Positions 21,889-50,188 are shown, numbered from the stretch's first letter. The stretch: 64,000 bases of DNA from Schmidtea polychroa (GCA_044892525.1 CM097885.1:17610001-17674000); one strand, 5' to 3'. Numbers and translations are program-made. Notes: a model not told the origin generated them from the sequence alone.

Positions 21889-21943
<55 letters not shown>

Positions 21944-24900: not shown

Positions 24901-26736
24901 AATGAATGTCCGTCTTTAACATGTTAAATAAAATAATTTAAAGCAATAACCTTTGATATCAATTATCTCTAAAGATTTCAAATATTTCATTGTCAAAACC
25001 AAGTAAATTAGTCATTAACCCTAAACACTTTAATAAATCCTGGATAATTAATAGACTATTTCCGTTGAAACATTTCCAATAAGAACATCACCCATTTAAA
25101 TATTCAAAACATTTCCACCCTAACCGATCCCTCACCAAATATTTCTACCCCTGTAAACATCCAATCGAATATATCCCCCCTAAAATACTATATATTCACA
25201 ACTTAACCGAACCCTAACTAAATCCAACCAACTATAATTTACCCACTTGAGCCCTTTAATATATCTTAAAATCTATAGAAAATTCTTCAAAATATGAATT
25301 TTATTTAATTGTTACAGATATTTTTCTATTGAAATAATTTAGTAGCTAAATTCAAAGAGTCCACTAAAAGATCAAAATAAATATTTAACCACATGTATCA
25401 TCAAATACCTAACTAGAGATGATAATATTTCATTGATTCATCATAATTCTTCATCGATTCAACTAATTATAACAATTATAACATGATATATCTTTTAAAC
25501 TAAATCACAATTTTCAGTATATTGTACAATAATTTTCAAGTAGATTTCAAATATATCATTATCGTGAAAAAAAAATTTAGCTGGTTTCAACTATAGATTT
25601 TCAATATTTTAAAGTTCATCAATGTGTAAATATTCTTAGAAAAATATATGAAAAAATTATTTAGTCAAATTCAATATCATTACAAAGTCATCATCATCAA
25701 ATTTATCCTATCACTTGATTATTAGCCTCATTAAAAATTAATTTTTATCTAAAATTTAAAAACTAGTCAATAAATATAGCAAATTATCAAGAAATTAATT
25801 AAATTTATCTTAGAATTAACACTAAAATTTTTAAATATTCTTTCAATTAACATGAAATTCACAAAAAATGTTAGTAAAATCCCGCTAACTCTAAAAAAAA
25901 AAATTACCAATGAATTTAATGCCAAATAATAACCAAAAATTTGCCTAAATAAAATCATTAAAACACACCAGTACCTTTACGACCAGTACCCTTACGACCA
26001 ATACCCTTACAAGCAGTACCCATAGGGGGAGAAAATATGTTGTCGGATAAACTCAGAGTATATATAATAAAACGAATTAACAATAACTCCATCAAATTGA
26101 ATCAGTCAAATTATCACAAATTTTAATGAAAAATCTTATTCTAAAATGGTAAGCAGCGTAAAATCGAAAGATAATTTTAATAACACAGAGATAAATAATA
26201 TTTTGAAAAATAATAATAAAATAGTTAAATGACCTTGAAAATGATCTCGGGGAAACGTTAATAACTTTGTCAATATTAATGATGATGATACCTTCAATAG
26301 CTCATTCGAAAGGTCTTGCACTAAGCTTCAAAATAAGCTATCGATAAAAGCTATAAGCTATCGATGATTGGAACGAAAACATTTGGGCAAACGAAAACCA
26401 GGGGCCCGCTAGATCACTAATAATATTTTGAATAATAATAATAAAATAATATTTTTTAAAAATAATAATATGACCTTGATGAGTCATCACAATGAGTCAT
26501 ATGACCTTGGGAATGACCTTGGATGAGTCACGCGACCCTGAAATGACCTTGAAATGACCTTGATGAGTCATGGTCTTTGTTTAAATGACCTTGATGAGTC
26601 ATATGTCTTTGTTTAAAATTTGACCTTGAAAAAAATGTACTTTTAGACTTAGAAATTTTTTTTTAAAATTTTCCGGCCGGGGGGGGGGTATGTGATCTAG
26701 CGGGCCCCTGATCTAGCGGTGCCCTATCCATCTACT
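20664..26736. mobile_element. Non-autonomous Polinton-type element (6073 bp)
   Basis: AGTAGATGGATAGGGCA... / ...TGCCCTATCCATCTACT ends, ~550-590 bp TIRs (20664-~21250; ~26190-26736) and a 6 bp TACCAT TSD. No intact core genes. Confidence 0.92.
23466..23670 (+). pseudogene. IAP-type RING finger fragment
   Basis: CSICKENQVSVLYLPCGHVIVCSKC...CQAC, near-identical to the 3' half of 50553-50933. Confidence 0.8.
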
Positions 26737-28917: not shown

Positions 28918-31215
28918 TTGAAATATCAAAACTTTTGTAATAGTCAATATCATAATGACTGCGATGATATAATGGAAAGATATTATAGTCATAAATATAA
29001 CGGTGTCACCTACATCCTATGCCCTAAATGTGAGGTTATTGAAGTTATAACGTATAAGGAATTTTTTAATAAGCATAGACTCCATCTCCAACAATTTAAA
29101 CCTTCTAAGAAATCTCTTTTCTATAGCTTATATAAATCGTTTGTTAACAATAATAATATCAACAACAATAATAATACTAACAACACCAATAATAATAATG
29201 ATATAAACGAAATAAATAATCTAAAAGATCAAGTAAATAAATTAAATGATCAAATGAATAATCTAATTAATATGAATAAAAGAAAAAATAATGAAAAAAT
29301 AAATTTAATACCAATTAAAAATCTAAAGTTATTGATGTAATCACAATAAGTGATGATGATGTAATAATCAACATAAGTGATGATGAAATTGTTAATAATA
29401 ATAGTAGTAGTAATATTTATTATAATAATGGTATTAATAATAATTATAATAATATTAATCAAATAGGTTATGGTGTCGTAGATGTCACCAGTGATTTAAA
29501 TAATAATCATATTATATTAAAAATGGACGTTTCGTCTTTAGATTTAAAAACGGTCTCTGTACCAGACATTTTAATAAATAAATTAAATTTATATGTAAAT
29601 AAATTAAAATCATGTAAAATTCAATTTTGTCTAAAGGTGGAATTTATAAAAGATGATGAGTTACAATCTTTTGTAATCTCGAATTCCGCCCGAGTTTGGA
29701 GATATACATTCATTGACGAAGGTATTGCTCGTTTAAATGAAAAAATAATTAAAATTAATGAGAAAGGTAGTAATTGGACTATCAATAAAATCGAATACAT
29801 AAGCTTTGTTCTGACTAAATTTGCTGAAATAAGTCGTTTAAGTGGTAGAAGCTTTATTGAAACCCCAAAATCTTTAAGAAACTTAAGCTGTCTCATTAAT
29901 GCAGTTAATAATGACCAATTCTGCTTTTTGTATAGTTTCTTGTCAATTATTAAATATGACAGTATAAATAGGCAATATAGAAATCGCCCTAATTCCTACA
30001 ATCTTTCTGATATTAAATTTGATTCTAATGATATGCCGATGAAACTATCAAATATAAGTAAATTTGAACAACAAAATCCAGGTTATAGTATTAATGTTCT
30101 TACTTACAACGAAAAGGCTTTGATAGACATTTCCGATGAAGATGCAGTTATGAAACATCCCTTTATTGATATAATATACAGGAGTAAGATAGTAGGAGCC
30201 ATACCTATCAATTTATTATTAATTGAAAAGAATGATAATTATCATTATCTTGGAATCACAGACCTAAATAGATTCCTTAATTGTAGGAATAGTTCAATCA
30301 CTCCTGTTAGGATTTGTAGTCAGTGGTGCCCTAGGTGTTTAAACGGGTTTAGGAATGATGACGCTTTTAATAGACATAAGGGTCTTTGTGATAAAAATCA
30401 GCTTGGTACTACCTTGTACACATTGCCTAAAAATAAATATTTAGAATTTACTGACTGGAGTAAAACAGTTACTCCTCCGTTTGTTATTTACGCCGAATTT
30501 GAGGCTATCTTACCTAAAGACACTCTCTATTTTCAACGTCATCTACCTATTTCTGCCGGTATACTTTTTATTAATAATTTTACGGGAGTAAAAATTTATA
30601 AGTCGTTTACCGGTTTAGATTGTGTCGATCAATTTCTTACTGAAATTGAAATGATAGGGAAATATATTGTAACTCCTTATTATTATAAAAATTATCAAAA
30701 GAAAATGATAATTACAGATGAACAACAATTAATGTTTGAAAACAGTACATCCTGTTATTTGTGCAATAAGCCTTTAGTTAGTCCAGTTAGGGACCATGAT
30801 CATTTTACCGGTCTATATCTTAGTGCCGCTTGTACAACTTGTAATCTGTCGAGGCAAATTAGACATATCCTTCCTGTAGTATTTCATAATTTAAAGGGTT
30901 ATGATCTGCATCATATCTTGAAATTTGGCCTTTCAAAATACCATTCATGGAATATTAGTTGTATTCCTTTAACCAGCGATAAATTCCTTAGTCTTTTTGC
31001 TAGGATTGACTCATTAACTGTTAAATTTATAGACTCATCAATTTGTCAGCGAGTCTTTGAATAATGCTGTCAAAACTTCATCATCTTTACCCTTGACCGA
31101 ATCAGAATTTCAGGGTACAATAATAACTGCAAAGGGAATTTTTCCTTATGATGCCGCAACTTCATTAGAGGTTTTGCATAACACTCATCAGTTACCTCCT
31201 ATTTGGAAAGATGTG
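28918..31215 (+). pseudogene. Protein-primed DNA polymerase B, 5' part (outer Polinton; frameshifted)
   Basis: VRDHDHFTG, FHNLKGYD, KFIDS and KGIFPYD motifs. The 29523 ORF is open upstream to at least 29331 and probably joins the 28918 ORF via a frameshift. Confidence 0.9.
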
Positions 31216-31523
31216 AGTAGTGTGTATCTATCCCTAACGACCACAAGCCTCCCAGCTGTTTTCATGTTTTATACCTATTTTTTTCCCGTTTTATACCTAT
31301 TTTTCCCCCATAAACGTAAAAAAAAAACACTTAAAACCTTAAAAACCTATATCTTTTAATTTCTTTATTCCGAAGACATTTTGCTTTCAAAATAAAAACT
31401 TAAAAAACAACAAAAATATTAAAAAAACAACACAAAATGTTAATAAAACAGGGAAAAAAATACTGATAAAACTATGAAAAACGTTTGTCGGCTTGCGGTC
31501 GTTAGGGATAGATACACACTACT
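31216..31523. repeat. Left TIR of inner Polinton (itself bounded by inverted repeats)
   Basis: Starts AGTAGTGTGTATCTATCCCTAACGACC and ends GGTCGTTAGGGATAGATACACACTACT. Confidence 0.92.
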
Positions 31524-31680
31524 TGCAGGTCGCCAGTTTATCAAGTCGCCAGTTTATCAAGTCGCCAGTTTATCAAGTCGATAGTTTGTCAAGTCAATGA
31601 TGCAATCGCTGCGGTCTTGGCAAGTCGACAGCTTGGTAAGTCGACAGCTTGGCAGGTCGATAGCTTGGCAAGCTGCTAGA
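31524..31680 (+). repeat. 16 bp tandem repeats next to the left TIR
   Basis: (AAGTCGCCAGTTTATC)n followed by (AAGTCGACAGCTTGGC)-like units. Confidence 0.85.
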
Positions 31681-31833
31681 ATATAAATATAAAAAAAATA
31701 AAAAAAAAATAAAAATAAAAATAAAAAAATAAAAAAAATAAAAATAAAAAAAAATAAAAATAAAAATAAAAATAAATATATAAAAATTTAAAATTTAAAA
31801 ACAACGTATCCAGTAAAAAAATTTTTTCTAAAA

Positions 31834-34800
31834 ATGAATTGTAATATTTGCAATAAAGTTTTTAAAAATAAAACAGGATTAATTTCTCACTATAAATCGA
31901 AAGCTCACTTACTAAAAGAAAATAATCTTAATGACACAAATTCAAAAGTTTGTACTAAATGTAAAGGAAGATTTCTACATTCTGGATATAATAAACATTT
32001 TGAAAATTGTATCGGGAAAAATAGAGAAATATTTACATGTCCTCATTGTAACTTTTCAACAAAACTAAATTTCTATTATTTAAGACATTTAAAAGAATGT
32101 AAAAATAAAAAACAAAATTCTGACGTTGAAGAATGTCATTCAGAAGGAGAACCTGATCATGTTGAAAGAGAAAAATACAACTGGGATGATTTTAATCATA
32201 TAGATGAATTTCAATTAAAAATTAATGGACCTGCAACCCCTGGAGAATATATAAGGAGAAATAAAAAAAATATTAAAAATTCTTTCACTGAAGCTTTAAA
32301 AAATTATAAACCAACAAGGTATAATGTTATAAAATATAAAATTACAATCAAAGCAAAATATTGGAGAGGACCAGAAGAAAAGACAACTCCTTTAGATGTT
32401 GAAATTGGAATACCTTTTAAATATTTATTTTCAACTAGAGGATTTAATAAAAGCATCAAAGAAATAATTCAAGCAGTAGAAGCAAAACAAGAAGAGGTTG
32501 AAAATGAATTAGGAGATTCAAACTTAGTATTCAACTCTTTCCAAACTTTAGTGATTGATTATTGGAGAGGATTACCACCTAATCCTAAATCTTATATTCA
32601 AACACCCTTTAGATCTAGGGTTGTTATAAATGTACAGAATAAGGATAACAAATGTTTCATGTGGTCAATACTTGCATATTTACATCCTCAAGCTGAAAAC
32701 CCTCAAAGAGTTTCAAAATACAAACAATATGAAAATGAATTAATATTTCCCAAGGGATTCACACACCCAATGAAACTAGAAGACATTCCAGAATTTGAAA
32801 AACTAAATAATCTTAAACTTAATATTTATGAACATGTTAAAGGATGGGGACATGGAAGGAAAGATATTATTCCAATTTATATTTCTGATAGTGATAGCAC
32901 GAGGGAGATATATCTTTTAATCTTGGAAGAAGGAAATAATCAACATTATGTTTTAATAAAAGACTTTCAAGCTTTTACATCACCAGAGAATCCAACTAGT
33001 GGAGGAGGAACATGTAAAAGATGTCTTCATTATTCAACAACTAAAAACTCTATGATTAAACATGCAAGATTTTGTGAAAAAGATGATCCAGCTTTAATTA
33101 GAATGCCTACAGATCCCAGGATGTATTTTAAAAACTTTACAAATTTATTACAAACATTAGGAGTTGTCTATGGAGACTTTGAATCTATAAATCGTAAACA
33201 AGATATAATTATGCAATATTTAAAAATAATAGAAAAATATAAACTCATGGATGAATGGAAAGCCTCTAAACAGAAGATGAAACCAGAGAGGATGAAAGCC
33301 TTTCTAAGAAAAAGAAATAAACCTAATAGTGTTAAAAAAACTAAACAATTACCATCTGCTTATAAATTATTATTTAAAAGTAATTATAGAATCTAGAGAA
33401 TATGCATTTCAAGGAACTTCAGAAGATGTTTTAAATCATTTTACTAAAAGTATAAATGATCTAGAACATGAAATATTTAAAATATTAAAAACAAAGTATC
33501 CTCAAAAAATTTCTAATCAACAACAACAAGAATATGAAAATACTTCCAACTGTTGGATGTGTAAACAAGACATTCTTCCTGATGATAAAGTTATAGATCA
33601 CGATCATTTAAAAAAGGAAAATAATTATCGAGGAGCAGCCCATAGAAATTGTAATCTTAATTGTCATACTCCTAAATTTGTACCAGTTATATTTCATAAT
33701 CTTTTTGGTTATGACATACATCTATTTATTAAACATTTAGCAGAAAATGCTAAAAACTCTTTCAAAGTTATAGGACTTACAAAGGAAAAATATAAATCAG
33801 TTGAATATGGAAAATTAAAATTTATAGACTCGTTAAACTTTCTCAAATGTCTCTAGATGGAATAGCTAAAACAATGAAAGCAGAAAATTTTAAAATCACT
33901 CGAGAATTCTTGGAAAAAAATAATATCCCCCAGAAGAATATCCTACATGCTTAGCAAAAGGAATATATCCCTATGACTATGTTGATTCATTTGAAAAATA
34001 TAATGAAACAAAATTACCAGAGAAAGAAGATTTCTATTCCCAACTTCAAAAATCTCATATTACAAATCAAGAATATTCTCGAGCAAATAAAATGTGGGAT
34101 CTTTTCAACTGTAAAACTTTAGGAGAATATACAAGTATGTACTTATCCCTAGATGTTTATATTCTAGCAGATTGCTTTGAAGAATTTACAAAGTCTTTTG
34201 TTCTTAAACCTTATAATTATATAACAGCTCCTTCTTTAGCTTGGGATACTATGTTATATACCATTTGGACTTCAGATCTTCCAGAATCTGATAAAATTAT
34301 AGATCTTTTAACCGACCAAGATATGTTTAATCAAATTAAAACAAACATTAGAGGAGGAGTATCTTCAGTAATGGGGAATAGAGAAATAAAAGCTAGAAAT
34401 GCAATAACTACTAGCCGAAGAATCTCTAAACACCCTGATCCATATATAAAACTTAACAATGAGGAACTAAAAGAAGTATTAGAAGGAATGAAAAATCCTC
34501 TATTTATACTTTATATAGATGCAACAGCTTTATATTCAGGAATTATGACTCAATATTTACCAATGAGTGACTTTCAAGAAATATACTCCTCTGAAGGACT
34601 TCCAGAAATAGAATGCCCTCCAGAAGAATATTTAAAGACTCTTATGAATGAAATACTTTCAACTCCTAAAGATTCTCCAATAGGATACTTTGTAGAATGT
34701 GACCTCGACTACCCAGATGATATAAAATCAGGAACAAGACATTTCCCTTTAGCTCCTATAAGAAGAAAGATTGATATCAACGAACTTTCACTCTGGCAAA

Positions 34801-36158
34801 TCTCACAAGATAAACCTCCAACAATGAAACTTCTTTGTGATCAAACAGATCGAACTTATTATCTTTGTCACTATAGACTCCTCCAGTTTTATCTTTCACA
34901 AGGAATGATATTAAAAAAAGTTCATAGTGTCATAAGATTTAAACAAGCAGCATTCATGAAGACTTTCATCGAGGAGAACATTCGTTGTCGAAACATTGCA
35001 AAAAGAGAAGGTAACCTTTTAAAAGACAATAATTATAAACTTTTAAACAATTCAGTCTTTGGGAAGACAATGGAGAATGTTGATAAATATACTCATATTG
35101 AACTCCTAACAAATACCCCGAAAGATATAGCCCGTTATAATCGTATGCTAGGAAAGCCTACATTTAAAAATGCAGAAGTATTTTCTGAAAATCTTACTGC
35201 AGTAGAACTACAGAATTTTGAGAAAACATATAATAAACCAATATTTATCGGCTTTGCAATTTTAGAACTTTCAAAATTACAAATGTATGAAACATATTAT
35301 AACATCTTACAACCTATATATGGATCGAATATAGCAATGCATGCAATGGATACAGATTCAATGTTTTTAACAATAAGAACTCACGATTTACAAAGTGATA
35401 TCTCTGAAAATCCTATACTTTCAAATTTAATAAATTCATCTGGAGAATTATTTTCGTTTAAAGATGAAAAACCTTTTACTCCTATAGAAAATGGAATATT
35501 TATTCGTGCTAAACAATATTCATATGAAACATTTACAAATCCTAAATTTGAAGAACATTCATTTATATTTAAAACCCCAGAAACAGAAGAAAGCATTACA
35601 CATAGATATCCTATATTCCCTAAAGGACCTGACGGACAGGGAGAAAAACCTGTAAAGGATAACAGATGTAAAGGAATTCAGAGATGTGTAGCAAAGAATC
35701 TTTCTCATCAAGATTATATAGATACATTGAATCCAAATCATAAAGATAAAATTGATGAAATACATCAACTTAAAAGTGAAAAGCATGATATTTACTTGAT
35801 AGAATCCCAAAAAGTATCATTATCAAATTATGATGACAAAAGATTCATACTAAGTGATTTAAAGACAACTCTTCCTATAGGAAATAATTTAATACCGATA
35901 ATAAAAAATCTTGATAGATTGAATCAGTTATATGGTACAAAGATTACTGATCTTGATATTTATAATGTTGAAATCATTTATCCTGAGAGAATTGAGAAAC
36001 CTTTATATTCTCAAGTTTTTAATCCTATATGTTTAGAACTTAAATATTTTAATACTGATCCTGAATATATAAAAGGTCTAAGTGATAAAGAATTTAAAGA
36101 TCATAAAGAGGTTCTAAAAACTAATTTCGAAAAGTTAACATCAGATTCTATCAAATGA
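31834..36158 (+). pseudogene. Protein-primed DNA polymerase B with N-terminal C2H2 zinc fingers (inner Polinton; frameshifts near 33390, 33850, 33940)
   Basis: VYGDFE, IDHDH, FHNLFGYD, YIDATALY, KLLNNSVFGKTMEN, MDTDS and DDKR motifs spread over three ORFs. Confidence 0.93.
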
Positions 36159-36232
36159 TTTTTTTCTTTTAAAAATGTCAACAATTAATTTAAGAGTGAC
36201 AACATCAACCTTTTGAAGGGCAATAAATTTTT

Positions 36233-36853
36233 TTATGTATGATTCTTTAGCCACTTCTTTCGTTTAATTTTTTTAGAATATTCATTACTTATAACATTAG
36301 CACTTTTTAATCTTATAACCTCATTTTTAATATCTTGTATTATTTGATTTGATTTCATTATTTCTTCGTCTGTTAGGATTCCATCTTCCAAAGCTTTTAA
36401 TTGAAATAAAAATAATTTAGAGATTCCTAATTCTATTGATAAACAAACTTCTCTATATAAACTTTTCTTTTTAGAAGTATAAGATAATGAAACTATTTCA
36501 GTTAAGAAACCATCAGCTACAGAAATACTTCCAAGTATTACAGGTGCAAGAGTAACAACTGGTAAAGTTATGGGTAAAATAACTGTTAATATTGCAGATG
36601 CAAATCCTAAAGAATAACCTATAACTTTTAAAACTGTATTCCCTTTATTCCATCTATTTTTAATTTTTTTATAATGCTTTAATAAATCTTGTAAATGTAA
36701 GGTTTCTGATTTAAATTCTTTTACTCTCATAATTTCAAGTTCTGTGGGAGCCGAGGCCTTGGAACCTTTGTGACCTTCGGAATAATATCTTGATGACAAT
36801 TCTGGGTAAATTTTTTCTTCTCTTACTTCTTCCATCTTTTGGACTTTGTCCAT
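36233..36853 (-). CDS. Predicted two-TM membrane protein (inner Polinton)
   Basis: 206 aa with two adjacent hydrophobic segments flanked by helical regions. Confidence 0.7.
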   Translation of the reverse strand: MDKVQKMEEVREEKIYPELSSRYYSEGHKGSKASAPTELEIMRVKEFKSETLHLQDLLKHYKKIKNRWNKGNTVLKVIGYSLGFASAILTVILPITLPVVTLAPVILGSISVADGFLTEIVSLSYTSKKKSLYREVCLSIELGISKLFLFQLKALEDGILTDEEIMKSNQIIQDIKNEVIRLKSANVISNEYSKKIKRKKWLKNHT

Positions 36854-36861
36854 TTTAATAA

Positions 36862-37866
36862 TTAAAAAAATAAGACTTTATTCTTCTGAGCACCATCTGG
36901 TACCAATACTCGGATATCAAAAGAAACTCTTGTTGAGAGAATATCTTTATACAATTCTCTCAATGCTTTACGAACTTCATCAACATCAACCTTTTTTTCA
37001 TAAAATATTAAATCTATATATTGTACAAGTGTGCTTTTAAAAATAATATTCTTACTTTTAACTTTATGTAGTCCATGTGAATGAGTATTAACATACCAAT
37101 CTCCGTGTGGTAAATCATAACTAGTCATTATAACATCACCCTTTTCAAGCTTACTATTATAATCACATTTCACAAACCATTTCATTCTTTCATTATCATC
37201 ATCAAACAAAAAGAAATAAGGATCAATAATCTTTACAACCATAAAAACACCCCATTCTTTACTGTTTGTTGTTATTAAACTTGGTTCTATAAAATGTTTA
37301 TATGTATGGGGTAATAATGTTTTATTCTGTTCTAATTCAGCAGCTCTTTTTCTAATACTATGTGTGGTGTTAATGTGTGTTCCATGAGACTTTAAATTTG
37401 AAATTCTTTTATTAAATGATGTAATCATCTCATTTATTATATTATATATTGTATTAAATTTAGTATTCATAATTTGTTTATCTTTAGAATTTAATATGCT
37501 AGTATTTAACTTTACAACTTGTTCAGTTAACAGACTTTGTAACTTGTCAAATTTATCATTAAATCGTTGTTCGATATTATTAAGCTTTGATTCCATTGAA
37601 TCAATTTTTGTTGTTAATGAACTTTCAATTCTTGTTGTTGTTAAATCAGTATATTTTTTAACACCATCTACATATTTCTTATTAACTGCATCGAGATTAT
37701 CAACTGGAAAAGATAAATCTTTTATCTTGTGTGCATTCATACTTAAATCACTCTTCATTGAATCACCTCTTTCATTAATATATTTATTTTCTGTTAAAGT
37801 TAATATGTCTTCTGTATCAACCCCAATTGTTCCTCCACCTTTATTACATGGAATATAAGAACTCAT
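36862..37866 (-). CDS. Putative fibre/adhesin-like protein
   Basis: GDSMKSDLSMNAHKIKDLSFPVDNLDAVNKKYVD resembles a YadA/tail-fibre neck motif. It is followed by a coiled coil and a C-terminal globular domain. Confidence 0.65.
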   Translation of the reverse strand: MSSYIPCNKGGGTIGVDTEDILTLTENKYINERGDSMKSDLSMNAHKIKDLSFPVDNLDAVNKKYVDGVKKYTDLTTTRIESSLTTKIDSMESKLNNIEQRFNDKFDKLQSLLTEQVVKLNTSILNSKDKQIMNTKFNTIYNIINEMITSFNKRISNLKSHGTHINTTHSIRKRAAELEQNKTLLPHTYKHFIEPSLITTNSKEWGVFMVVKIIDPYFFLFDDDNERMKWFVKCDYNSKLEKGDVIMTSYDLPHGDWYVNTHSHGLHKVKSKNIIFKSTLVQYIDLIFYEKKVDVDEVRKALRELYKDILSTRVSFDIRVLVPDGAQKNKVLFF

Positions 37867-37970
37867 TTATTAGGGGATTAAAATACTTAAGAATTCCTCT
37901 CCCCCTTTGTACACTTCGTTAGTCCTTCTCCGCCTTCTCCCTTTTAGTCCTTCTCCCCCTTGTGACTTCC

Positions 37971-38726
37971 TCAGACCTGTTTCAAATGTAAATACATTGA
38001 AATCTCTTCTCCATTAAAATCAATCAATTCTCCTTCTTGATTAAGAATTTTAAAATTAATATCCATTATATATTTTCTACATAAAGGTAAATAATTTGGA
38101 GGATTCATTCTTTCAACTATTTTATATCCCATAGGAACTGTGTTTGAGGGAAAGGAATATAAAACATTTGTTTGTTTACCATTATTATAAGAACCAGTTA
38201 TACAATCGCAATGAATATTTATTGTGTTTGTATTTATTATTTTTATAATATTTTCTGATGTAACTACAGGTGTGATATAATGGTTTCGTGTAAATCCTAA
38301 AATTGTTCTAAAGAAACTATTATTTTGAAAATGAATTCCTATATTCTCTAAAGTCATTATACATTTTGAAGTTGGTAAATCCATTTTAATTTTAATGACT
38401 CCATTTGTTTTTTTAGAAAGTATATTATTTAAATCTTTTATCTCATAAGCTCCGGGTTCGATTGTTATTATAATCTTATCTGTAGATTTTGGGCTTATAT
38501 AATAAAATATGTTATTATCTTTAGTTATATTAAAAATAGTATTATAAGCACAAAACCATAATAGTCCTAATTCATAATTTAAATTTTGATCTAATTTAAT
38601 TTAATCTTGAAAGTTTATAGTAAAGTCTGATTCTTTTGAATTTATAGATAAAGTTCTTGAATATTTATCTGACATTATGTTTACCATTTTTTTTAAATTA
38701 TCTTCCGGAAGGTTGCGAAGCTCCAT
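37971..38726 (-). pseudogene. Minor capsid (penton-like) protein with one in-frame stop at 38601-38603
   Basis: INIHCDCITGSY.NG...VLYSF...GYKIVE and NQEGELIDFNGE..LHLK. The frame continues upstream to the ATG at 38726. Confidence 0.87.
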
Positions 38727-38728
38727 TT

Positions 38729-39160
38729 TCATAGTATAGATTTTAAATCATTATAAATTTCTTGGATTAAGGAAGTGAAACCTTCTCCTTTGGATTTATT
38801 CAATCTATACAAAACATATAAGCTTAAAATACCACATATTTTAGTATTATTAGGTTGAACTTGTAAAGAATTAAAAGTGTAGTCCGAGAGATAGTCTTCA
38901 ACTTCTTTAGTGGGTTTAATCCCAAAAGAATCAAAGTATATAGATTTATTATATATACAAACCCAATGAGATCCTTTTTCATTTGAATTTTGATAATTTA
39001 TAATGATATTCTTTGGAGTGTCTTCTTTCAGACTCGACAATTCATCATTCATTAATATTTTTATTTTTAAATTTAAATAATCTGCATAATCTTTTAAATC
39101 AAAATTTGTTTTTGTATTTATTCCAAATGTTTTTAAAAAATCTAATATTGAAGGAGTCAT
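38729..39160 (-). CDS. Adenain-like cysteine protease
   Basis: GSHWVC, YFDSFG and Q...ICG. Confidence 0.93.
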   Translation of the reverse strand: MTPSILDFLKTFGINTKTNFDLKDYADYLNLKIKILMNDELSSLKEDTPKNIIINYQNSNEKGSHWVCIYNKSIYFDSFGIKPTKEVEDYLSDYTFNSLQVQPNNTKICGILSLYVLYRLNKSKGEGFTSLIQEIYNDLKSIL

Positions 39161-39182
39161 TTTATATTTTATAACTTTGTAT

Positions 39183-39980
39183 TTATAACTTCGTATACTT
39201 ATTAAATTTATCTTTTGAAATTATTCCTTGTTTTAATAATTCTTTAGAAATCTTTAAAATATCAGAATCTAAATTATTATGTCCTGCTTTTTTAGCTGCT
39301 AATAGTTTTCTTAATTCAATAAAAAGATTGATTGGGTTTATCTCCTTACCCTTTCCCTGGCCCTGACCCTGGCCCTCTCCTTCTGTGACAATATAACCCC
39401 TTTCATTTTTATTTAAATATTTCTTTAAATCTTGAATATGTTTTGCTTTAGCACTACCATGTACTAATTCTATTAAATTTAAATATTTTTTAATTTCTAG
39501 AAGATCAACATTCTCTGAGGGATATCCACAAACTAATCCATAAAAATCATCTGTAAATTCAAAATCTAGGTGTTTAGTATTATAAACATTTTGTGAATGA
39601 ATACGTGATTTATTTTCTGAATTTAAATATAACAGAAAGTCATGTTTATTAATTGTTATTATTTGATATCCTTCAACATTAATATTAAATGTAGGTTTAA
39701 TTGTTTTACTTAAACTCACATTAATTTTAGGATCAAGTATAAGAGGTTTTATATTTAAATCTCCCAACCATGGTAATTCTTTTAAATCTTGTTTATCTTC
39801 CAACTCTTTAAATTTTAAAACTTCTAACTCTTTTATGGCTTTAATTGTTGGTCCTTGTTGTTGTTGGATTACCTCATTTAATATTATAGATTCAGCGTGT
39901 TGAGTTGTATCTTTTTTATTATATTTATCTTGTTCTGATTGTAATTTTTTTAAAAGTGCTAATCTTTCTTCATATACCAT
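39183..39980 (-). CDS. Polinton conserved hypothetical protein
   Basis: Contains GEG/GQG/GKG repeats. The C-terminal LLAAKKAGHNN...ELLKQGII is recalled as a motif of Polinton accessory proteins. Confidence 0.7.
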   Translation of the reverse strand: MVYEERLALLKKLQSEQDKYNKKDTTQHAESIILNEVIQQQQGPTIKAIKELEVLKFKELEDKQDLKELPWLGDLNIKPLILDPKINVSLSKTIKPTFNINVEGYQIITINKHDFLLYLNSENKSRIHSQNVYNTKHLDFEFTDDFYGLVCGYPSENVDLLEIKKYLNLIELVHGSAKAKHIQDLKKYLNKNERGYIVTEGEGQGQGQGKGKEINPINLFIELRKLLAAKKAGHNNLDSDILKISKELLKQGIISKDKFNKYTKL

Positions 39981-40002
39981 TTTAATGGTATTAAAAATGG
40001 TA

Positions 40003-40605
40003 TCATTTTGGTAAAGGATCCGTTGGAAAGGATTTCAAGTATAAACCTTTACCATTTTTAATTTTACAAAGACATCCATTCTTTAAAGATTTACATATTT
40101 TTTTAAAATCATCTTTATCTTTTGAAGATAAAGATTCAGATGATGAAATTTGATTTTTTAAAAAATCATTTAAACCACGGCCTTTATAAGGATCAAGATA
40201 GAGACCCCTTCCCTGAGACTTTTGCAGACTCCCCTCATATGGATTAAGATAGAGACCCTTTCCAACGGACACTCCCCCTTTAGCTTGATCCTTCTTCATT
40301 GAATCGATTTCAGTTTGTAGTTTTTCTTTTTCTAGGTCTGTCTTTTGAGATTCTTTAGCTTTTTGAACTGTAGTTGCAATTCCTCCAGCTATTCCAGCAG
40401 CACCTGATAGTCCGGCAATGATTGCAGGTATTAAAGCAGCTAATGGAAGAATGCCACCTTCTTTAGCTTCGTGGAGCTTCGCTCTAACTTGTTCTTTTAC
40501 ATGTTTTCCAATAAAATATTTTTTACCAGAGATTACTACTGATTTATTCTTGTCTGAATTTATTAATTCTTGCAAAAATTCCTCTGTAGGGTTTTGTGTT
40601 GTCAT
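40003..40605 (-). CDS. Putative protease-processed, membrane-active core protein
   Basis: KEGG-ILPLAALIPAIIAGLSGAAGIAGGIA amphipathic segment and repeated G(K/R)GL(YL) motifs. Confidence 0.72.
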   Translation of the reverse strand: MTTQNPTEEFLQELINSDKNKSVVISGKKYFIGKHVKEQVRAKLHEAKEGGILPLAALIPAIIAGLSGAAGIAGGIATTVQKAKESQKTDLEKEKLQTEIDSMKKDQAKGGVSVGKGLYLNPYEGSLQKSQGRGLYLDPYKGRGLNDFLKNQISSSESLSSKDKDDFKKICKSLKNGCLCKIKNGKGLYLKSFPTDPLPK

Positions 40606-40620
40606 TTTATAATAAATAAA

Positions 40621-41400
40621 ATGGATATTTGGAAACCAATTTTAAATAGACATAAGAGTAAATTTAATAATAAAGTATTTCCTGATAATTTTAGATGCTT
40701 AATTATTGGATCTTCTGGATGTGGAAAGAATGTTCTTCTTTTGAGGATGTTATTAGAAGATGGTTTTTTAGATTATAATAATTTAATCTTTTATTCTACA
40801 ACCATTAACCAACCAGAATTACAACTTTTGAAATGTGGATTTGAAAATAAATTAACTAAAAAAGCTATAATTGATATTTTTAAAAATCAACATACATATC
40901 CCGAAGAGGTTTTTCATCCTTGTGATATGGTTGATTGGTACAAGGAAAAGATTTTAGAATCAGATATTAGTAATAAAAATGATTATATAGGGGATGGAAT
41001 CCAGATCTTATTCTCTAATAAACCTGAAGATGTTTTACATTGTGATTTACTTCCTAAAGATAAAAAGAATCTAGTTATATTTGATGATGTTGTTAACATG
41101 AAAAATCAAGAGATTCAAAAGAGTTACTTTACACGAGGTAGACATAATAATTGTAATGTTATTTATATATCTCAAACATATTATGCTTTAGATAAAAACT
41201 CTATAAGAAATAATTCTAATTGTTTTATATTTTTTAAATTAGACAAGCGTGATAAGAATATGATTTATAATGATTTATTTTCAAATGTTGAACCTGATAA
41301 GAATATGTTTGATATGTTTGTTGATAATCATTGGAAAGAAAAATATAATTATATTTATTTGGATAGAGAAGAAGCTGAAATGTGGAAAAGTTTATTTTAG
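40621..41400 (+). CDS. FtsK/A32-like packaging ATPase (inner Polinton)
   Basis: Walker A GSSGCGKN, Walker B LVIFDD, FTRGRH and YISQ...IRNN. Confidence 0.93.
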   Translation: MDIWKPILNRHKSKFNNKVFPDNFRCLIIGSSGCGKNVLLLRMLLEDGFLDYNNLIFYSTTINQPELQLLKCGFENKLTKKAIIDIFKNQHTYPEEVFHPCDMVDWYKEKILESDISNKNDYIGDGIQILFSNKPEDVLHCDLLPKDKKNLVIFDDVVNMKNQEIQKSYFTRGRHNNCNVIYISQTYYALDKNSIRNNSNCFIFFKLDKRDKNMIYNDLFSNVEPDKNMFDMFVDNHWKEKYNYIYLDREEAEMWKSLF

Positions 41401-41411
41401 GGCTTGTCGAC

Positions 41412-42800
41412 TTAAAAATCTGTTTTCTGTAACTCATTATTATAAAATCTACCTAATATTTTTTCATTATTTAAATCGATGATACCATATGTTATTGGAG
41501 TTGTATGATGTATTTTATTTATAATAAAAATTTCATTTGTCCATTTTGCTGTGAATCCTTTTTCAAATTTATTTTTATATTTAAATATTCTTACGCGGTC
41601 ACCAATTTTAAATTTTGGTTTTATAGGGGTTGTATCAACAATAACATCATTTTCAATATTTACCACTTTAATGGTTTCAGGCTTCATGGAAGCATTTAAG
41701 GGTGTTGATTTTATAGAACTATGTACATCATTATTATATTCATTTACAATCTTTTGTAACAATTCATTATTCCATTTTTGTTTTCCAATAGCAGTAAAAT
41801 ATTTCCACATTTTATATTTTAATGTTCTATTTAATCTTTCAACTACGACTGCTTTTCCTTCGTTTTCTGTTGAATATAATTTAATATCATTTTCATTTAA
41901 AAACTTTGTAAAAACTTTGTTATAAAATTCTGTTCCTTTATCACACCATAAATATTTTGGAATTCTTTGATATTCTTCAAATATATTTTCAAATGCTTCT
42001 GTAATTGAATATCCTGTTTTATTTTCTAAACACCTTGCAAAAGCAAATCTTGTATATAAATCTATTACTGTTAAAATTATTTTATATTTTTCAGGGTCTG
42101 ATGATTTGGGCATAAAGACTAAATCAGCAGACCATGTTTGATCTTTTTCATGTACTTGAACTTTTAAATATTTTTTATTTTTTCTAAATTCATGGTGTAA
42201 TTCGTTGGCATATTTTATTTCTGATTCTGTTGGGTTTTGTAAGGGTTTATTCTCAAAGAGTTGATTCTCAAGGGATCTTTCAACGTCTGCTTGTTCAATA
42301 ATCCTTTTATTAGCAACATCTTTTGCTTTTCTAGGAAGTCCTGCTCCTATGAAAATCTTACCTTTCATTGCTAATTTAACTAGAGCTCTTTGAATCTTTT
42401 CTTGGGTTGATGGGTTTTGTATATTATTTAAATCATGTATTAAATTCACATCAGCAACATGTCTATCTCTAAGATCTTCTGAATTGTAAGCAATATCATG
42501 TTTTAAAGCTGCTTGGTCGATTCTATTTATTGGTTCTTCTCCTTGTTTAGGATTATTATTTTCATCTAATCTAATATCTAATCTTGTTCCTGGCCCAGTA
42601 TAATTGTGTTTAAATAAATGTCTTTTACCTGGATATTTTTCTGTAGTAAAAGGTTTTAATATTGAAGATGTTGTTTTTGAAGATTGTAGATCACCTCCTG
42701 TAATATCAACTCTCGTATGTTTTTTAGTTTTGAGATGACTTGCTTTGTGATGTCTTGTAACTTGACAATTACAACTTTCACATGTCCAATATTTACTCAT
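41412..42800 (-). CDS. Zinc finger + parvovirus-type PLA2 domain + retroviral-type integrase fusion
   Basis: NYTGPG...PINRIDQAALKHDIAY is the PLA2 motif. WSADL, WCDKGTEF and VERLNRTLK give an intact DDE triad. Confidence 0.92.
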   Translation of the reverse strand: MSKYWTCESCNCQVTRHHKASHLKTKKHTRVDITGGDLQSSKTTSSILKPFTTEKYPGKRHLFKHNYTGPGTRLDIRLDENNNPKQGEEPINRIDQAALKHDIAYNSEDLRDRHVADVNLIHDLNNIQNPSTQEKIQRALVKLAMKGKIFIGAGLPRKAKDVANKRIIEQADVERSLENQLFENKPLQNPTESEIKYANELHHEFRKNKKYLKVQVHEKDQTWSADLVFMPKSSDPEKYKIILTVIDLYTRFAFARCLENKTGYSITEAFENIFEEYQRIPKYLWCDKGTEFYNKVFTKFLNENDIKLYSTENEGKAVVVERLNRTLKYKMWKYFTAIGKQKWNNELLQKIVNEYNNDVHSSIKSTPLNASMKPETIKVVNIENDVIVDTTPIKPKFKIGDRVRIFKYKNKFEKGFTAKWTNEIFIINKIHHTTPITYGIIDLNNEKILGRFYNNELQKTDF

Positions 42801-42829
42801 TTTAAAAGTTTTTTTATGGGGGAATCTAC

Positions 42830-44125
42830 TTATGAAGAATCTCCCCTAACATTTTCAATAATTGAAATCTTTCCACCATATAATTTCATTTCTATTTTCT
42901 TTTCTTCTAATATTAATGTATATACTTTAGCTTTAAAATTAGAATCCTTTGTTATATGAAGTGTAACATCAACATTATTTATAGCTAGGCGATCATCTTG
43001 GTCTGATACATTTATACAAAATATAGAATATAAATTTTTGAAATCTTCTAAACTTAATTGCGGTTCAACTTTGAAATCATAACATGTTTCAATATAATTT
43101 AGATATGGGAATATGTTTTCATTATTTTCAATATTAAATTCCATTCTATTTATTGGATAATAAGAACTATTTAATTGAATTTGGATTGTTTTTAAATTAT
43201 CATCTCCAATCTTTTGAATAAATAGATTGTTATTTTTTTGGAAAGATGAATCTACTTCTTTGAATCCAATCAAGATATATCTTGGTCGGTATGCTAAATT
43301 TGCCACCTTTATAGAATATGTTGAACCCTCTGTCATACTAAATTCACTACAGATTCTATTTAAATAATTTACATTTATAGACTTGTTGGAATTTAATCTT
43401 TCAAGGAGTTTGATTTCAGAATGTGGGTTTAATGTCCATTCAGGTATATGCAATTCAAGTGTTGATAATTTTAATTTAGCTGTTGTGTCTGCAGCTCCAT
43501 AGAACAATCTTTTATCACCTTCTACTCTATTACAGATGAGTTCTATAAAAACATTATGAAGTACACGGTTATAATTTTGAAGGAATCCAAATAAGTGTTT
43601 TAATTCAAAATAACCTTCAAATTTTTTCAACTTAAAAAGTTCAACTCTTTTATAGTAAGCATAATTTATATCTAAACCATCTTTATCTAAATCCCCTTTA
43701 TTAACATCAGGAATCCAACCTGTTAATTCACCATATTCGTTTTTATAATCACAACCAGTTAAAATAAAATTTAACATTGTAGAATATACTCCTGGATGCA
43801 AAACAGTTTCAATTTCTGATGATCCTAGTTTTAATCTCATGTTGGAGAATAAATTTGGAAAGAAATTATTTTCTAGGGTTATATCTTTGTTTGCTTCAAT
43901 TTCGAATTCAATTTTATAATATAATTTGGCATTACAAATATCTATTGGGTTTGATGTTTGAAGAGATTGAAAAACTATATCACCCCTACGATTTAAGTTT
44001 GCAATAGATCCTGAAGTTGGCGAGATTTTTAAAATATCATTTTTCTTGATTTCATGAGTAAATTCTTTATTATAATCAAGATTTAATTTATTTTTTTCTT
44101 GAATTTTAAGATTTATATTATTCAT
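42830..44125 (-). CDS. Major capsid protein (double jelly-roll, inner Polinton)
   Basis: 431 aa with RPRYILIGF, IQLNSSYYP and YSIFCINVSDQ. Size and position also fit. Confidence 0.88.
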   Translation of the reverse strand: MNNINLKIQEKNKLNLDYNKEFTHEIKKNDILKISPTSGSIANLNRRGDIVFQSLQTSNPIDICNAKLYYKIEFEIEANKDITLENNFFPNLFSNMRLKLGSSEIETVLHPGVYSTMLNFILTGCDYKNEYGELTGWIPDVNKGDLDKDGLDINYAYYKRVELFKLKKFEGYFELKHLFGFLQNYNRVLHNVFIELICNRVEGDKRLFYGAADTTAKLKLSTLELHIPEWTLNPHSEIKLLERLNSNKSINVNYLNRICSEFSMTEGSTYSIKVANLAYRPRYILIGFKEVDSSFQKNNNLFIQKIGDDNLKTIQIQLNSSYYPINRMEFNIENNENIFPYLNYIETCYDFKVEPQLSLEDFKNLYSIFCINVSDQDDRLAINNVDVTLHITKDSNFKAKVYTLILEEKKIEMKLYGGKISIIENVRGDSS

Positions 44126-44161
44126 TTATATAATAAAAATTTAAAAAATGATAAAAATCCG

Positions 44162-44244
44162 AACTCCGATAGCGCAGTGGGCTAGACTGGCACAGTGGTT
44201 CAAATGGATAGCGGTTCAAATCCTAACTACGGTTAGTTTTTTTT
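44162..44244 (+). ncRNA. Putative Pol III small RNA, copy 1
   Basis: A boxes TAGCGCAGTGG and TGGCACAGTGG, B box GGTTCAAATCC and a T8 terminator. Confidence 0.6.
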
Positions 44245-44394
44245 AACATAAAATAATATTAAAAATTTGAAAATAATATTGAAAATGGTGTGGGTATCTT
44301 AGATTTATATTTTATTTTATTTATTTTTATTTTATTTTATTTATTTTATTTTATTTTTTTATTAATTAAAAATTTAAAAAATGATAAAAATCCG

Positions 44395-44477
44395 AACTCC
44401 GATAGCGCAGTGGGAATAGACTGGCACAGTGGTTCAAATGCTAGCGGTTCAAATCACGTCTGAGGTTAGTTTTTTTT
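44395..44477 (+). ncRNA. Putative Pol III small RNA, copy 2
   Basis: Diverged tandem copy (~233 bp unit) with the same A boxes, GGTTCAAATCA and a T8 terminator. Confidence 0.55.
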
Positions 44478-45100
44478 CAACATAAAATAATATTAAAAAT
44501 TTGAAAATAATATTGAAAATAATTTTTGAAAATAAATATTAAAAAAATATATAGTGTGGGTATCTTAGGAAATAAATCTTGTTTATTTTATTTATTTATT
44601 AATTAATTAATTTTTAAACATAAATATGAAAAAAAAAATATTGAAACGGGTGTGGTGGCGAACCGGTAATTATCGCCACCAGTCTTTCGAACACCCCCGG
44701 ATCGATTCTATAATGTGCACATTTATTTCTTGGTTGTTTTCGGACCTCTTTCGGATTCGCTTTCGAATTCATTTGTACTTTCGAGCAGCACACTTAAAAC
44801 GCCGATGAAATCGACTTCGTGAGCGAGAAGCGAATAATAAGGTGTGCTGCTATTATCGAATTGATTCTGATATATGAGTCTGGCCAGCTTGTATATTGGA
44901 AGAGATTTGATAAACGAAAGAGGTTGAAATAAAAAAAAAATGATCCGGATCAAAAAAAACTGTTGAGAGGACAGTGAAAAAAAAATACCACTGTCCTCCC
45001 AGAGCAGTTTTACTATTTTCATAAAATTTTTTATTCTTCAAGATTAAGATTTATAAAATTATAAATTAGTCAAATAGCAACTTGCTAGTTGACATCCTCA

Positions 45101-45366
45101 AGTAGTGTGTTTATATCCCTAACGACCGCAAGCCGACAAACGTTTTTCATAGTTTTATCAGTATTTTTTTCCCCGTTTTATTAATATTTTTGTTGTTTTT
45201 TTTAAGTCTTTATTTTGAAACCAAAATGTCTTCAGAATAAAGAAATTAAAAGATATAGGTTTTTAGGGGTTTTAAGTGTTTTTTTTTACGTTTATGGGGG
45301 AAAAATAGGTATAAAACATGAAAACAGTGGGAGGCTTGTGGTCGTTAGGGATATAAACACACTACT
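45101..45366. repeat. Right TIR of inner Polinton (itself bounded by inverted repeats)
   Basis: Starts AGTAGTGTGTTTATATCCCTAACGACC and ends GGTCGTTAGGGATATAAACACACTACT. Confidence 0.92.
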
Positions 45367-46720
45367 GATGTGACTCCCGCTGAATATGAGACAGCTCAGA
45401 GAATTTGGCTTGAAACTTCATGTACTTCACTTTTTGATTACATGATGGCTTATTTAAAACTTGATGTTTTCCTTTTAGCCGATTTTTTCCAGCAATTTAG
45501 AGCTAAGTCCATTGCTCATAACCGACTAGAGCCATTAGATTTCTTAGGTATTCCAGGTATGTCTTGGAATTCAGCCTTATTAACTTTAAACTCTCCAATT
45601 GAGCTCCTCACCGATATGGAGATGTATAACTTTTTCGAGGGCGGTATCCGTGGCGGACTAACTTTTGTAAATAAACACTATGTAAAAACAGACCCGGATA
45701 CTGCTTTGCTTTACATAGATATAAATAATTTATACGGTTGGGCTTTAAGTCAACCATTATCTTGCAGTGACTTTGAATGGGTTACTGATGATAATTTATT
45801 AAATAATATAATTGTTGAATGCACAACGGTAGATTTAGATCTGCTTAATTATGGTTATACCATAGAAGTATTATATTAACACAAATACGGCGTTACGAGC
45901 AGCGTCGGCAAATAAACTTGATAAAAGTTTTTATAGATTATTAAACAACAGTCTTTACGGCAAGACTGTTGAAAATCTTAAAAAACGTATTAATTTACGT
46001 CTGTGTAATTCTTCACAGAAATTATTAACATTCTGTTCGAAACCGACTTTTTGTAAATCCACGAAAATCGATGATGACTTGATTTCGGTTTTATTGAGGA
46101 AGGACACAGTGTGTTTGAATAGACCTAGTTACATTGGTCAAACTGTACTAGATTTATCCAAACTCAGGATGTACGAGCTGCAGTATGAAGAGTTGCAAAA
46201 ATATCTCGACGAATTCAACTGCGAAATTAATATCGTTGCTGGGGACACAGATTCCTTCTTCTTGGAAATTAAACATTGTAGTCTTGACATTCTTTTACCT
46301 GCGATGATTAGAGATCAATTATTAGATACTTCGAAATATGACCCAAATCATCTTTTATATAATAGGAACCTTGATTCTGTCATTGGTAAATTCAAAGACG
46401 AGAATAAAGGGTTATTATATAAAGATTGGGTGTTCTTGAGATCTAAATGTTACAGATTGATGGGTGATGAGGAAAGTATGAAGGCTAAGGGGATAAGTAT
46501 GAAAGATACTGGACTCACACATCAGTCGTATCTAGATTGTTATTTAAACGATAAAATATACACAGTCCCTCAGTTTAGAATAACATCAAAAAAATCACCA
46601 ACTTTTTAGTATTAAAAATAATAAAAGAACCTTGGCATGTAGAAATGATAAGCGAAATTAGGTGGATAAAAATCAAAGTTTGGCATATGGCCATTATAGG
46701 GGCGGTGACACCGATATATT
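45367..46720 (+). pseudogene. pPolB 3' part (outer Polinton; deletion and frameshifts)
   Basis: YLKLDVFLLAD, GIRGG, YIDINNLYG, LLNNSLYGKTVEN, AGDTDS and YGHY. It rejoins the 5' part in frame as PIWKDV-TPAEY. Confidence 0.92.
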
Positions 46721-47791: not shown

Positions 47792-48811
47792 TATTATTTC
47801 AGGTTCTTTGAACTCAATAATAATTTTGTCAGTATATGCTTCTTCTGATAATCCTAAACTAGTAGCCAAAATTTACTAAATTGAACTTTACTGACAACAT
47901 CTTCCAATATAATTTTAACTCTTTTTCCTTTGAATTTATTGAAAAGAGAGTTTGAAGACTATAAATCAGTAATATATCGATGTTTGTTGATAATCGCAAA
48001 TTTTCGGCACTGCCTTTTTCAAGTGAATTTTCCTTGAAAATATTCACTTGAAAAAGGCAGTGCCGAAAATTCTTGAGTATCAACAAACATCGATATTTTA
48101 CAGAGTTATAGTCTTCAAACTCTCTTTTTAATAAATTCAATGGAAAAAATAATCAGTGGTGAAATTGGAAGAAATATAAGTTCTAATAATAAAACTCTTT
48201 CCGTTTTGAATTTCACTTGATTTAAATGGACGAGGATAAAAGATCGATAATTGATCATTTATTTGATATACAAAATATTTTTTCAATCTTTCTCTTAAAG
48301 TTCGATCAAATCATTCTACATGAGGTTAAAATACCGATTAATGATTTATTCTTTTGATATCCTCTAACTTTGTTATAAAATTCTATATCTAATTATTCAC
48401 TTAAAATTTAATTTAATTTAATTTAATTATTCAAATTAGTTTGTAAATTACTAGGTTGACCATCATCAAACATTTGTTTTATTCATCAGCCATTTCATTA
48501 GTATATTTGGTTTTTGTAGGGAAAAGCGCGCGTATCTATTAAAAATACCAATGTAAGTCAAAATATATTTGTATCATTTGTAGATTTTCGAATAAGGAAT
48601 CATTTCCATCAAATCCATTTACCATAAATCATTGATTCCAAATGTTTTGTACAGCCTTGTTGGGATTCGCTTCACCATTGGTTTATTTAAATTATAGATG
48701 ACCATTTCTGAGTTTCTTTCTTTGAATTATTCACTCGTTTGGTTAATTTTCAGTGATTTTGATTGGTTGATAGACTATAAATGTAAAAGAAAGGTTTTGA
48801 TTTGATACACC

Positions 48812-49723: not shown

Positions 49724-49899
49724 TAAAGTCTTACCTGATTGGGTGAATGATAAATCACCCGCAAATTTCTTCATAAAATTTGCTATAAATTTGCTATAAA
49801 TTAGTGTCTGACTAAAAAATTAATAACTTTTATACCACTAGTGATAAAATTTATTTCTATAGCTCAAAAGATTTGTCTTCGTCTGAGCTTCAAAATGAA

Positions 49900-50187
49900 C
49901 TATAAATTGTTAAAATAATTTGAGATTTAGACTAAGTTTTGGACTGACGAAAAGTAGGACTCCGCGAGCACAGATAATAATATTTTTGAAAAATAATAAT
50001 AATTTTTTATGAGTCATCGGATGAGTCATCGTCTTTGTTCTAGACGAGTGATGAGTCATCGGATGAGTCATTGCCTTTCTTCTCAAGTTGACCTTGAAAA
50101 AAAATTTTTTTTTTAATTTTTCCGGCCGGGGGGGGGGGGGGCACTGTGCTCGCGGAGTCCTGTTTTCCCGGTGCCCAAACCACCTAC

Positions 50188-50188
<1 letters not shown>
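49900..50188 (-). mobile_element. Orphan Polinton-type terminus
   Basis: TTTTCCGGCCG(n)...CGGTGCCCAAACCACCTACT parallels the right end of the 20664-26736 element. Confidence 0.6.

Follow-up and report, generated by a model that had tools for sequence, protein, structure and literature searches.

Matched tip and inner copies in the palindromic terminal inverted repeats of a nested Polinton from Schmidtea polychroa

The stretch of DNA analysed here (the window) comprises 64,000 nucleotides of one strand from Schmidtea polychroa (GCA_044892525.1 CM097885.1:17610001-17674000), and its positions 31216-45366 hold a Polinton/Maverick of 14,151 bp whose terminal inverted repeats (TIRs) each contain a second, inverted copy of the tip. 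The assignment is given by a protein-primed DNA polymerase B (pPolB), an rve integrase, an ATPase, a double-jelly-roll (DJR) major capsid protein (MCP), long TIRs with (AGT)2//(ACT)2 ends and a 6-bp target-site duplication (TSD). As the first-pass annotation of the sequence had stated, a single TSD surrounds the whole 14 kb: GATGTG is found at 31210-31215 and again at 45367-45372, and neither of the two end units has a duplication of 4-8 bp of its own. Contigs without the insert span the target site in three of the four public runs compared (X1, X17 and X3), and the 14 kb was therefore inserted as a single piece. The host gene of the insertion is the pPolB of another, outer Polinton, which is split in two, with a 5' part at 29319-31209 (+ strand), cut by the inner element, and a 3' part at 45373-46609 (+ strand; PF03175, E 1.8e-6). 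Apart from its TIR design, the element is an ordinary nested Polinton.

The limits of the two end units were taken from two 10-mers, AGTAGTGTGT, which occurs exactly twice in the 64 kb (at 31216 and 45101), and ACACACTACT, which also occurs exactly twice (at 31514 and 45357). The left unit (31216-31523, + strand, 308 bp, haplotype A) runs from an (AGT)2 outer tip to an (ACT)2 inner edge and forms an imperfect palindrome with a long loop. Its outer arm is a perfect 27-nt stem (31216-31242, + strand, diagnostic sites 31226 and 31228) with weaker homology extending on to ~31297, and its inner arm is the inverted copy of the tip (31497-31523, - strand), where sites 31513 and 31511 agree with the outer arm and decayed homology begins at ~31443. 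The right unit (45101-45366, - strand, 266 bp, haplotype B) has the same palindromic design without a 22-bp and an 18-bp segment of the left one; its inner arm lies at 45101-45127 (+ strand, diagnostic sites 45111 and 45113) and its outer arm at 45340-45366 (- strand), the sites 45356 and 45354 of which agree with the right inner arm and differ from the left tip. In each TIR the stem directly follows the TSD, without an intervening base, and the perfect arms are separated by a spacer of 254 nt on the left and 212 nt on the right. When folded as single-stranded DNA, both units give long-loop hairpins, with z = -11.45 for the left (0/100 shuffles) and z = -9.84 for the right (0/200 shuffles), and the local hairpins are strong on both strands (-49 to -59 kcal/mol). 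The 10-mer positions, the palindromic arms and the folding thus bear out the earlier description of two inverted-repeat units with four termini.

When the left unit is aligned with the reverse-complemented right unit, 255 positions match, 10 are substituted and 44 columns contain gaps (96% identity over the aligned columns). Judged from this comparison, the two units are to be read as the ordinary TIR pair of one Polinton. A TIR that is an imperfect palindrome is present twice, and therefore four end-like termini are seen. The sequences just inside the inner tips were also compared. The left sub-terminal interior (31524-31675, + strand) has a short likeness to the right inner junction before it passes into nine repeats with a 16-bp period, and the right sub-terminal interior (45073-45100, - strand) resembles 31524-31553. 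In an anchored test of the 30 nt inside both inner tips, a score as good was reached by 1 of 3000 random stretches of the core, and a looser free-end shuffle test of the same junctions (136/2000 as good) fell short of significance; together they lend modest support to one ancestral junction shared by both ends. The period-16 repeats are formed by a CAAGTCG-like motif, present in nine copies at 31526-31675 inside the left inner tip and in one copy on the right, which is a candidate protein-binding array.

The arms of the two units form a mosaic when nucleotides are counted inward from each AGT. Over nt 1-27 the arms are identical within each unit (27/27), and the only differences between left and right in this tract lie at nt 11 and 13, where both left arms read A11/C13 and both right arms T11/A13. 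At nt 28, 35, 36 and 38, the outer arms agree across the two ends and the inner arms likewise agree with each other. The claim of the first-pass annotation that arms are homogenised inside each unit and not across the ends thus holds for nt 1-27, whereas these four sites sort by outer and inner position. The identity between arms is 27/27 at the tip against 42/55 over nt 28-82 (Fisher p 0.004, with the boundary set post hoc). With the left/right divergence outside the tip as the rate (6 in 211), the two substitutions would match independently with p ~4e-5 if the bases have to be the same and 4e-4 if only the positions do. An explanation of the ATC/TTA difference as a micro-inversion was rejected. 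The difference may represent one local slippage event, since haplotype A reads TATC twice, so that one or two events are involved; even as a single slippage event, the nt 11/13 change must have reached both arms. Sites 11 and 13 tolerate change, and we therefore infer that the tip is kept by pairing or copying and not as a fixed sequence.

The same design was found in a distant relative. A scan of metagenome contigs with the MCP profile gave 37 loci, only one of which (L016) reached a recognisable terminus. Its terminus consists of 15 nt of flank followed by AGTAGT, and the first 21 nt are found inverted again at 145-165; the fold-back unit of L016:16-243 includes the tip, measures 150 bp and has a perfect stem of 21 nt at the tip (0/100 shuffles). 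The loop holds a nested small hairpin, and a second, decayed inner copy (a third arm) lies further in. This contig, which contains one end only, has the capsid, ATPase, penton and protease in common with the inner element at 31-42% identity (MCP 31%, ATPase 37%), and its tip sequence is unlike that of the inner element past the first six bases. When the window was taken together with the first 52 loci, an inverted copy of 12 nt within 600 nt accompanied 5 of 180 AGTAGT sites, namely the four of the element and the one of L016. We consider the fold-back TIR, carrying a natural marker of end-local sequence transfer, to be a real feature present in at least two distant families.

Matched arms of a different kind are present elsewhere in the window. 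A gene-less Polinton-type element of 6,073 bp (20664-26736) with AGTAGA termini, a 6-bp TSD and TIRs of ~585 bp has nt 27-45 repeated in each TIR as a perfect inverted inner copy of 19 nt, the left TIR also having a decayed copy further inward. A Polinton-type right end at 49859-50188 (AGTAGG), which is 67% like the 20664-26736 family, has a perfect 18-nt inner inverted copy of its own, which likewise repeats about nt 27-45 and not the tip, the sequences of the two copies being different; it possibly belongs to the outer Polinton, and its left partner was not found in the window. Searches with the exact tip pattern gave no match in the viral contigs or in the metagenome contigs, and the L016 tip pattern gave none in the viral contigs. 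The MCP queries found no relatives in the viral contigs and prokaryotic genomes, and no match was obtained in the phage records. None of the loci recovered with the ATPase and integrase profiles (13 + 2 + 26) had a tip hairpin, most of them being without tips. An AG run in one further locus (L028) was considered as a terminus and dropped, as it looks coding by eye.

To see how the TIR varies between copies, public assemblies were used. Parts of the stretch are contained in 20 public runs, of which four from four studies (X1, X15, X17 and X3) were compared over 31050-31700, the runs X7-X14 with small shares being left out; the material consists of assembled contigs and not of raw reads (32 records and 24 loose-end rows listed, with 1224 and 74 more beyond the listing), and contig depth is taken as a hint only and not as a copy number. 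The A-type loop occurs without any difference in X1 (record 5), and B-type sites occur in X17 and X3. In X17, record 18 (56 nt, 2 differences, 1 gap and a 38-nt flank) counts exactly as a B outer arm, and record 20 has 10 differences, of which six fall on listed B sites, two come from the 22-bp junction and the other two, which are not listed, would from the counts most simply be the B inner tip. The B-type TIR has ~1.9 times the depth of the left interior in X17 (10.8/5.7) and X3 (31.4/16.8), where both ends appear to be B-type. The six A/B sites of the loop and inner arm differ in their shares (47-91% in X1 and 20-61% in X15), so that A and B count among several haplotypes that recombine, and the A-left/B-right state seen here is probably a mix of TIR haplotypes circulating in the family. 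A fixed asymmetry with A on the left and B on the right is disfavoured, the sole main-depth TIR contigs in X17 and X3 being B-type; in X1 the depth of the A loop (5337) is near that of the left interior (4073), and such an asymmetry may hold there.

The contigs also bear on the junctions of the unit. Sister units in X17 and X3 retain both arms around an unrelated loop, and the outer tip is joined to other flanks in contigs of X1 and X17. The loose ends listed for the inner tip start, after shared bases, 2 or 8 bases beyond it and are family-interior-like, none starting at the tip itself. Where listed contigs extend to the inner junction, they have inner-type arms followed by family-type interior sequence, and no strand-change joint is present among the listed contig records.

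To account for this mosaic, we propose that single strands fold back and are copied locally at each end, so that every tip stays equal to its own inner copy, a reading to which we assign a probability of about 0.6. The tip, comprising the (AGT)2 end and ~80 further bases, would have been duplicated in inverted orientation 270-310 bp inward; with the right TIR as the inverse of the left, four end-like sites would result. A strand may become single by displacement in the course of protein-primed copying or by exposure at a host fork, and its 3' end could then pair with the nearby inner arm sooner than with the opposite end 14 kb off. Trimming of the tip and its renewed extension with the inner arm as template would follow, or else a template switch between the arms by a polymerase of the element or of the host, and the copied tract would run from the tip beyond nt 13 and end before nt 28. 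The inner arm could in this way act as a local master copy that gives each end its own duplex origin, leaving the left and right tips free to diverge while each matches its own spare. The sorting of nt 11/13 by end and of nt 28/35/36/38 by outer and inner position supports fold-back copying, as does the same design in different sequence in the distant L016. Fold-back copying of the ends, which had been one of the two origins suggested by the first-pass annotation, is thereby favoured by the tip-anchored perfect tract, the end-local co-variation and the L016 design. We infer it from two ends and indirect contig counts, and it is the explanation that fits best, with compensatory selection as a possible source of the same pattern. 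A broader proposal, according to which a clade of animal Polintons would have replaced the left-right panhandle with an end-autonomous hairpin of ~150-300 nt serving on single-stranded DNA as mark of the exact host/element junction for excision, as duplex origin of the 3' end and as tip template, with the nt 28-38 mismatches distinguishing the end from its spare, is speculative and rather unlikely.

Several observations speak against fold-back copying. The co-variation is read directly at the two ends of one copy only, and the public contigs break at the tip, so that the letters at nt 11/13 are absent from the listing. The summed depth of the inner arm is 2.3-4 times that of the outer arm in X1, X15 and X3 (1.1-1.3 times in X17); this excess (31446-31511) may reflect sister elements sharing only the inner-type arm. 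The full left-right panhandle reaches -259 kcal/mol, and the local hairpin must therefore win kinetically. A folded-back 3' end would tend to run on into the core unless halted by some signal, and the Streptomyces fold-back needs a dedicated enzyme to avoid such run-on (accessible part of PMC5449611). Template switching homogenises imperfect inverted-repeat arms in yeast, leaving clustered substitutions, and the spacers surveyed there measured at most 70 nt against ~210-250 nt here (PMC8604942, in the sections at hand). The matched arms at 20664-26736 and 49859-50188 do not take in the first 26 nt, and fill-in of the tip cannot account for this. No inner inverted copy is present at the Polinton-type end at 56315 or at the (AG)6 end of a further locus (L049), and 26 integrase-bearing viral loci have no tip hairpin, most of them lacking recognisable tips. 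Matched arms being found in several families and absent at other ends, the matching of arms within TIRs recurs, whereas the tip-inclusive form is lineage-specific.

The mosaic could also be produced by selection on the hairpin or on inverted protein-binding sites, with compensating changes arising without copying, in a copy that is a recombinant of an A-type and a B-type element. The conservation of the arms in sister units whose loops were replaced is in agreement with such a constraint, as are the 18-19-nt sub-terminal stems of other families, which are not tip-anchored, and the unequal shares of the six A/B sites are those that recombining haplotypes would give. This explanation, however, requires two exact compensations between TIRs that are just ~3% diverged, in a stem where the nt 28-38 mismatches remain in both haplotypes, and no half-compensated state is seen among the four arms; we regard it as unlikely. 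Less probable still is priming of synthesis by the terminal hairpin, in the manner of parvoviruses, with resolution by a nick at the inner terminus. Such a model was proposed for TIR palindromes in the Halocafeteria virophage study (10.64898/2026.07.28.741278, in the portion of the text available). It would account for the complete end sequence retained at the inner terminus, and the 3' end does pair flush on the inner arm, forming a primer-template junction. The flip/flop loops and swapped arms that it predicts are nevertheless not matched by the two ends of the window, which have one orientation, nor by the listed contigs, in which arms at the inner junction are inner-type and strand-change joints are absent; moreover, the element encodes pPolB, and no HUH/Rep domain was detected by Pfam (E 0.01) in its 12 scanned frames.

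The other origin suggested by the first-pass annotation was a composite transposon, in which two independently mobile Polinton-end miniature inverted-repeat transposable elements of ~300 bp would surround a viral core, as IS10 flanks Tn10. The composites Tn10 and Tn5 resemble the present element in having four end-like sites, the inner ends being slightly unlike the outer ones, but differ from it in that here the flanking modules are non-coding and without a TSD of their own, the enzymes being located in the core. Formally, two complete (AGT)2 ends are present in each unit, the two units differ by the substitutions and gap columns given above, at least three different interiors follow the inner tip in contigs, and the inner-arm depth is in excess in three of the four runs, all of which a pair of mobile units could explain. 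No solo insertion is present in the window or among the 24 loose-end rows listed, and solo units may occur elsewhere in the genome. The lack of a TSD (k = 4-8) at either unit and of any further tip copy in the window (up to 4 mismatches in 20) is difficult to reconcile with independent mobility, as are the resemblance of the inner junctions in the anchored test (weaker in the free-end test), the absence of listed loose ends at the inner tip itself when the outer tip has varied flanks, and the ~1.9-fold TIR depth in X17 and X3. In addition, the core has no termini of its own once the units are removed. The units being a TIR pair with similar inner junctions, this suggestion was not upheld, and we consider it very improbable. 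An assembly or polishing artefact, by which mixed reads of different copies would have given each unit one haplotype, is scarcely credible: the family is multi-copy and the window has a 100% identical repeat that is possibly an assembly duplication, but the A-type loop recurs unchanged in X1 and the B-type sites in X17 and X3, and such an artefact can create neither a palindrome nor L016 and would still require A/A and B/B TIRs.

In its pPolB, rve integrase, ATPase, DJR capsid, 6-bp TSD and ends, the element is like animal Polintons/Mavericks of the adintovirus type, and its lengths are within the range of vertebrate Mavericks, for which TIRs of 46-1,447 bp, a total length of 12.7-24.6 kb and (AGT)2//(ACT)2 or (AG)3//(CT)3 ends are given in the main text of PMC8097293. 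It is unlike them in that the TIR contains a second, inverted, complete terminus. The words 'hairpin' and 'palindrom' are absent from that main text. In the standard Polinton model, TIRs 14-20 kb apart anneal on one strand (PMC4046053 and 10.64898/2026.07.28.741278, each in its accessible part), and protein-primed replicons are described as passing through single strands and using a left-right panhandle (relayed in the accessible part of PMC4046053). This annealing model does not predict local sharing of tips.

Palindromic ends have been described in other systems. In Halocafeteria, TIR palindromes adjoining the TSD occur in four virophage subtypes and one Polinton-like virus (PLV) subtype, with hairpin priming proposed; the example given is a palindrome of 52 nt (subtype 5), gaps of more than 10 nt were outside the screen, and the replication genes of the elements are mostly non-pPolB (10.64898/2026.07.28.741278, in the same portion of text). 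The TIRs studied here are like these in having a palindrome within the TIR that begins at the TSD, and unlike them in their spacer of 210-250 nt, their pPolB element and variants that co-vary by end; that screen, as described there, could not have detected the present long-loop form. In Streptomyces, Tap-mediated fold-back repair of protein-capped telomeres concerns up to 4 nt on a 13-nt palindrome and uses a dedicated primase (PMC5449611, same part). The mechanism proposed here would work like it, with a protein-capped linear replicon, a folded 3' strand and an internal complementary copy that templates the tip; as far as that part of the article goes, it differs in its tract of at least 13 nt over a long loop, the Streptomyces repair following replication from an internal origin. 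Template switching at quasi-palindromes, as the yeast sections present it, is a generic mutational process, which alone explains neither a tip-anchored tract nor a recurring design. Casposons are also self-synthesising elements, some of them with palindromes inside their TIRs, and their single-strand/panhandle model was borrowed from Polintons; they are prokaryotic and use a Cas1 integrase, and no duplicated terminus or co-variation is described in the accessible part of PMC4046053.

In the literature searched, neither a tip-inclusive duplication with a long loop nor end-local co-variation was found to be described for Polintons; this literature excludes the 2006 founding paper, the 2007 Maverick paper, the adintovirus paper, Repbase reports, the older adenovirus end-repair literature and supplements, any of which may mention such ends. 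Term searches were negative in the accessible text of PMC8097293, 10.1101/2023.08.22.554363 (nematode), PMC6431247, PMC8363768, PMC11296320, PMC3014272 and 10.1101/2025.02.07.637071. Terminal TIR palindromes of a short-loop, mostly non-pPolB form are known from protist virophages and PLVs, and the long-loop, tip-inclusive pPolB form was not found in the literature searched. Usual screens would miss the design, since a TIR finder goes no further than the outer pair and gaps in the published palindrome screen were limited to 10 nt. The natural variants serve as markers, indicating that tip sequence is shared within one end and not between ends, and they bear on how an integrated Polinton leaves the chromosome and regains its protein-primed end.

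The coding content of the inner element begins with a protein-primed PolB with an N-terminal zinc finger (31834-36158, + strand), disrupted into three reading-frame pieces (31834-33396, 33308-33856 and 33924-36158), the last of which matches PF03175 (E 6.8e-13). A probable minor capsid (penton) protein (37971-38600, - strand; feature score 0.98, Preplasmiviricota/Nucleocytoviricota clusters) is 37% identical to its L016 counterpart, and a probable maturation protease (38729-39160, - strand) is 42% identical to its own. Neither candidate has a Pfam or PDB match, and the protease carries what we take, by eye, to be its catalytic motif. They are followed by an A32-type packaging ATPase (40621-41400, + strand; PF04665, E 8.9e-9), an rve integrase with a PLA2-like domain (41412-42800, - strand; PF00665, E 2.9e-12; PF08398, E 3.7e-9) and the DJR MCP (42830-44125, - strand; PF21738, E 3.7e-27). 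No Tap/Tpg-like gene was detected in the element. Two direct repeats of ~230 bp each are located at 44081-44520, both holding Pol III A-box- and B-box-like motifs; no tRNA and no Rfam family was found in the regions scanned, these repeats included. They are followed by a GC-rich stretch near 44640-44700 that looks stem-like by eye.

Outside the inner element, the outer Polinton contains a cassette at 14846-18270, in which a TBP homologue (PF00352) stands head-to-head with an ATPase and an integrase; boxes at 14846, 15111 and 15172 begin with AGTAGT, yet they are direct repeats and no TIR ends. Downstream of the outer pPolB, a near-perfect palindrome of 187 bp starting with AAAAGAGAG is located at 47942-48128. 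The first 7,958 bp of the window (1-7958) are 100% identical to 56043-64000 as a direct repeat with a period of 56,042 bp, which may have arisen by a recent duplication, tandem or segmental, or else in the assembly, and a Polinton-type end lies within this repeat at 273/56315. Finally, a long terminal repeat (LTR) element with 693-bp LTRs (99.7%) occupies 8936-13530, and its long open reading frame has an N-terminal ubiquitin domain ahead of a DUF1759 domain.

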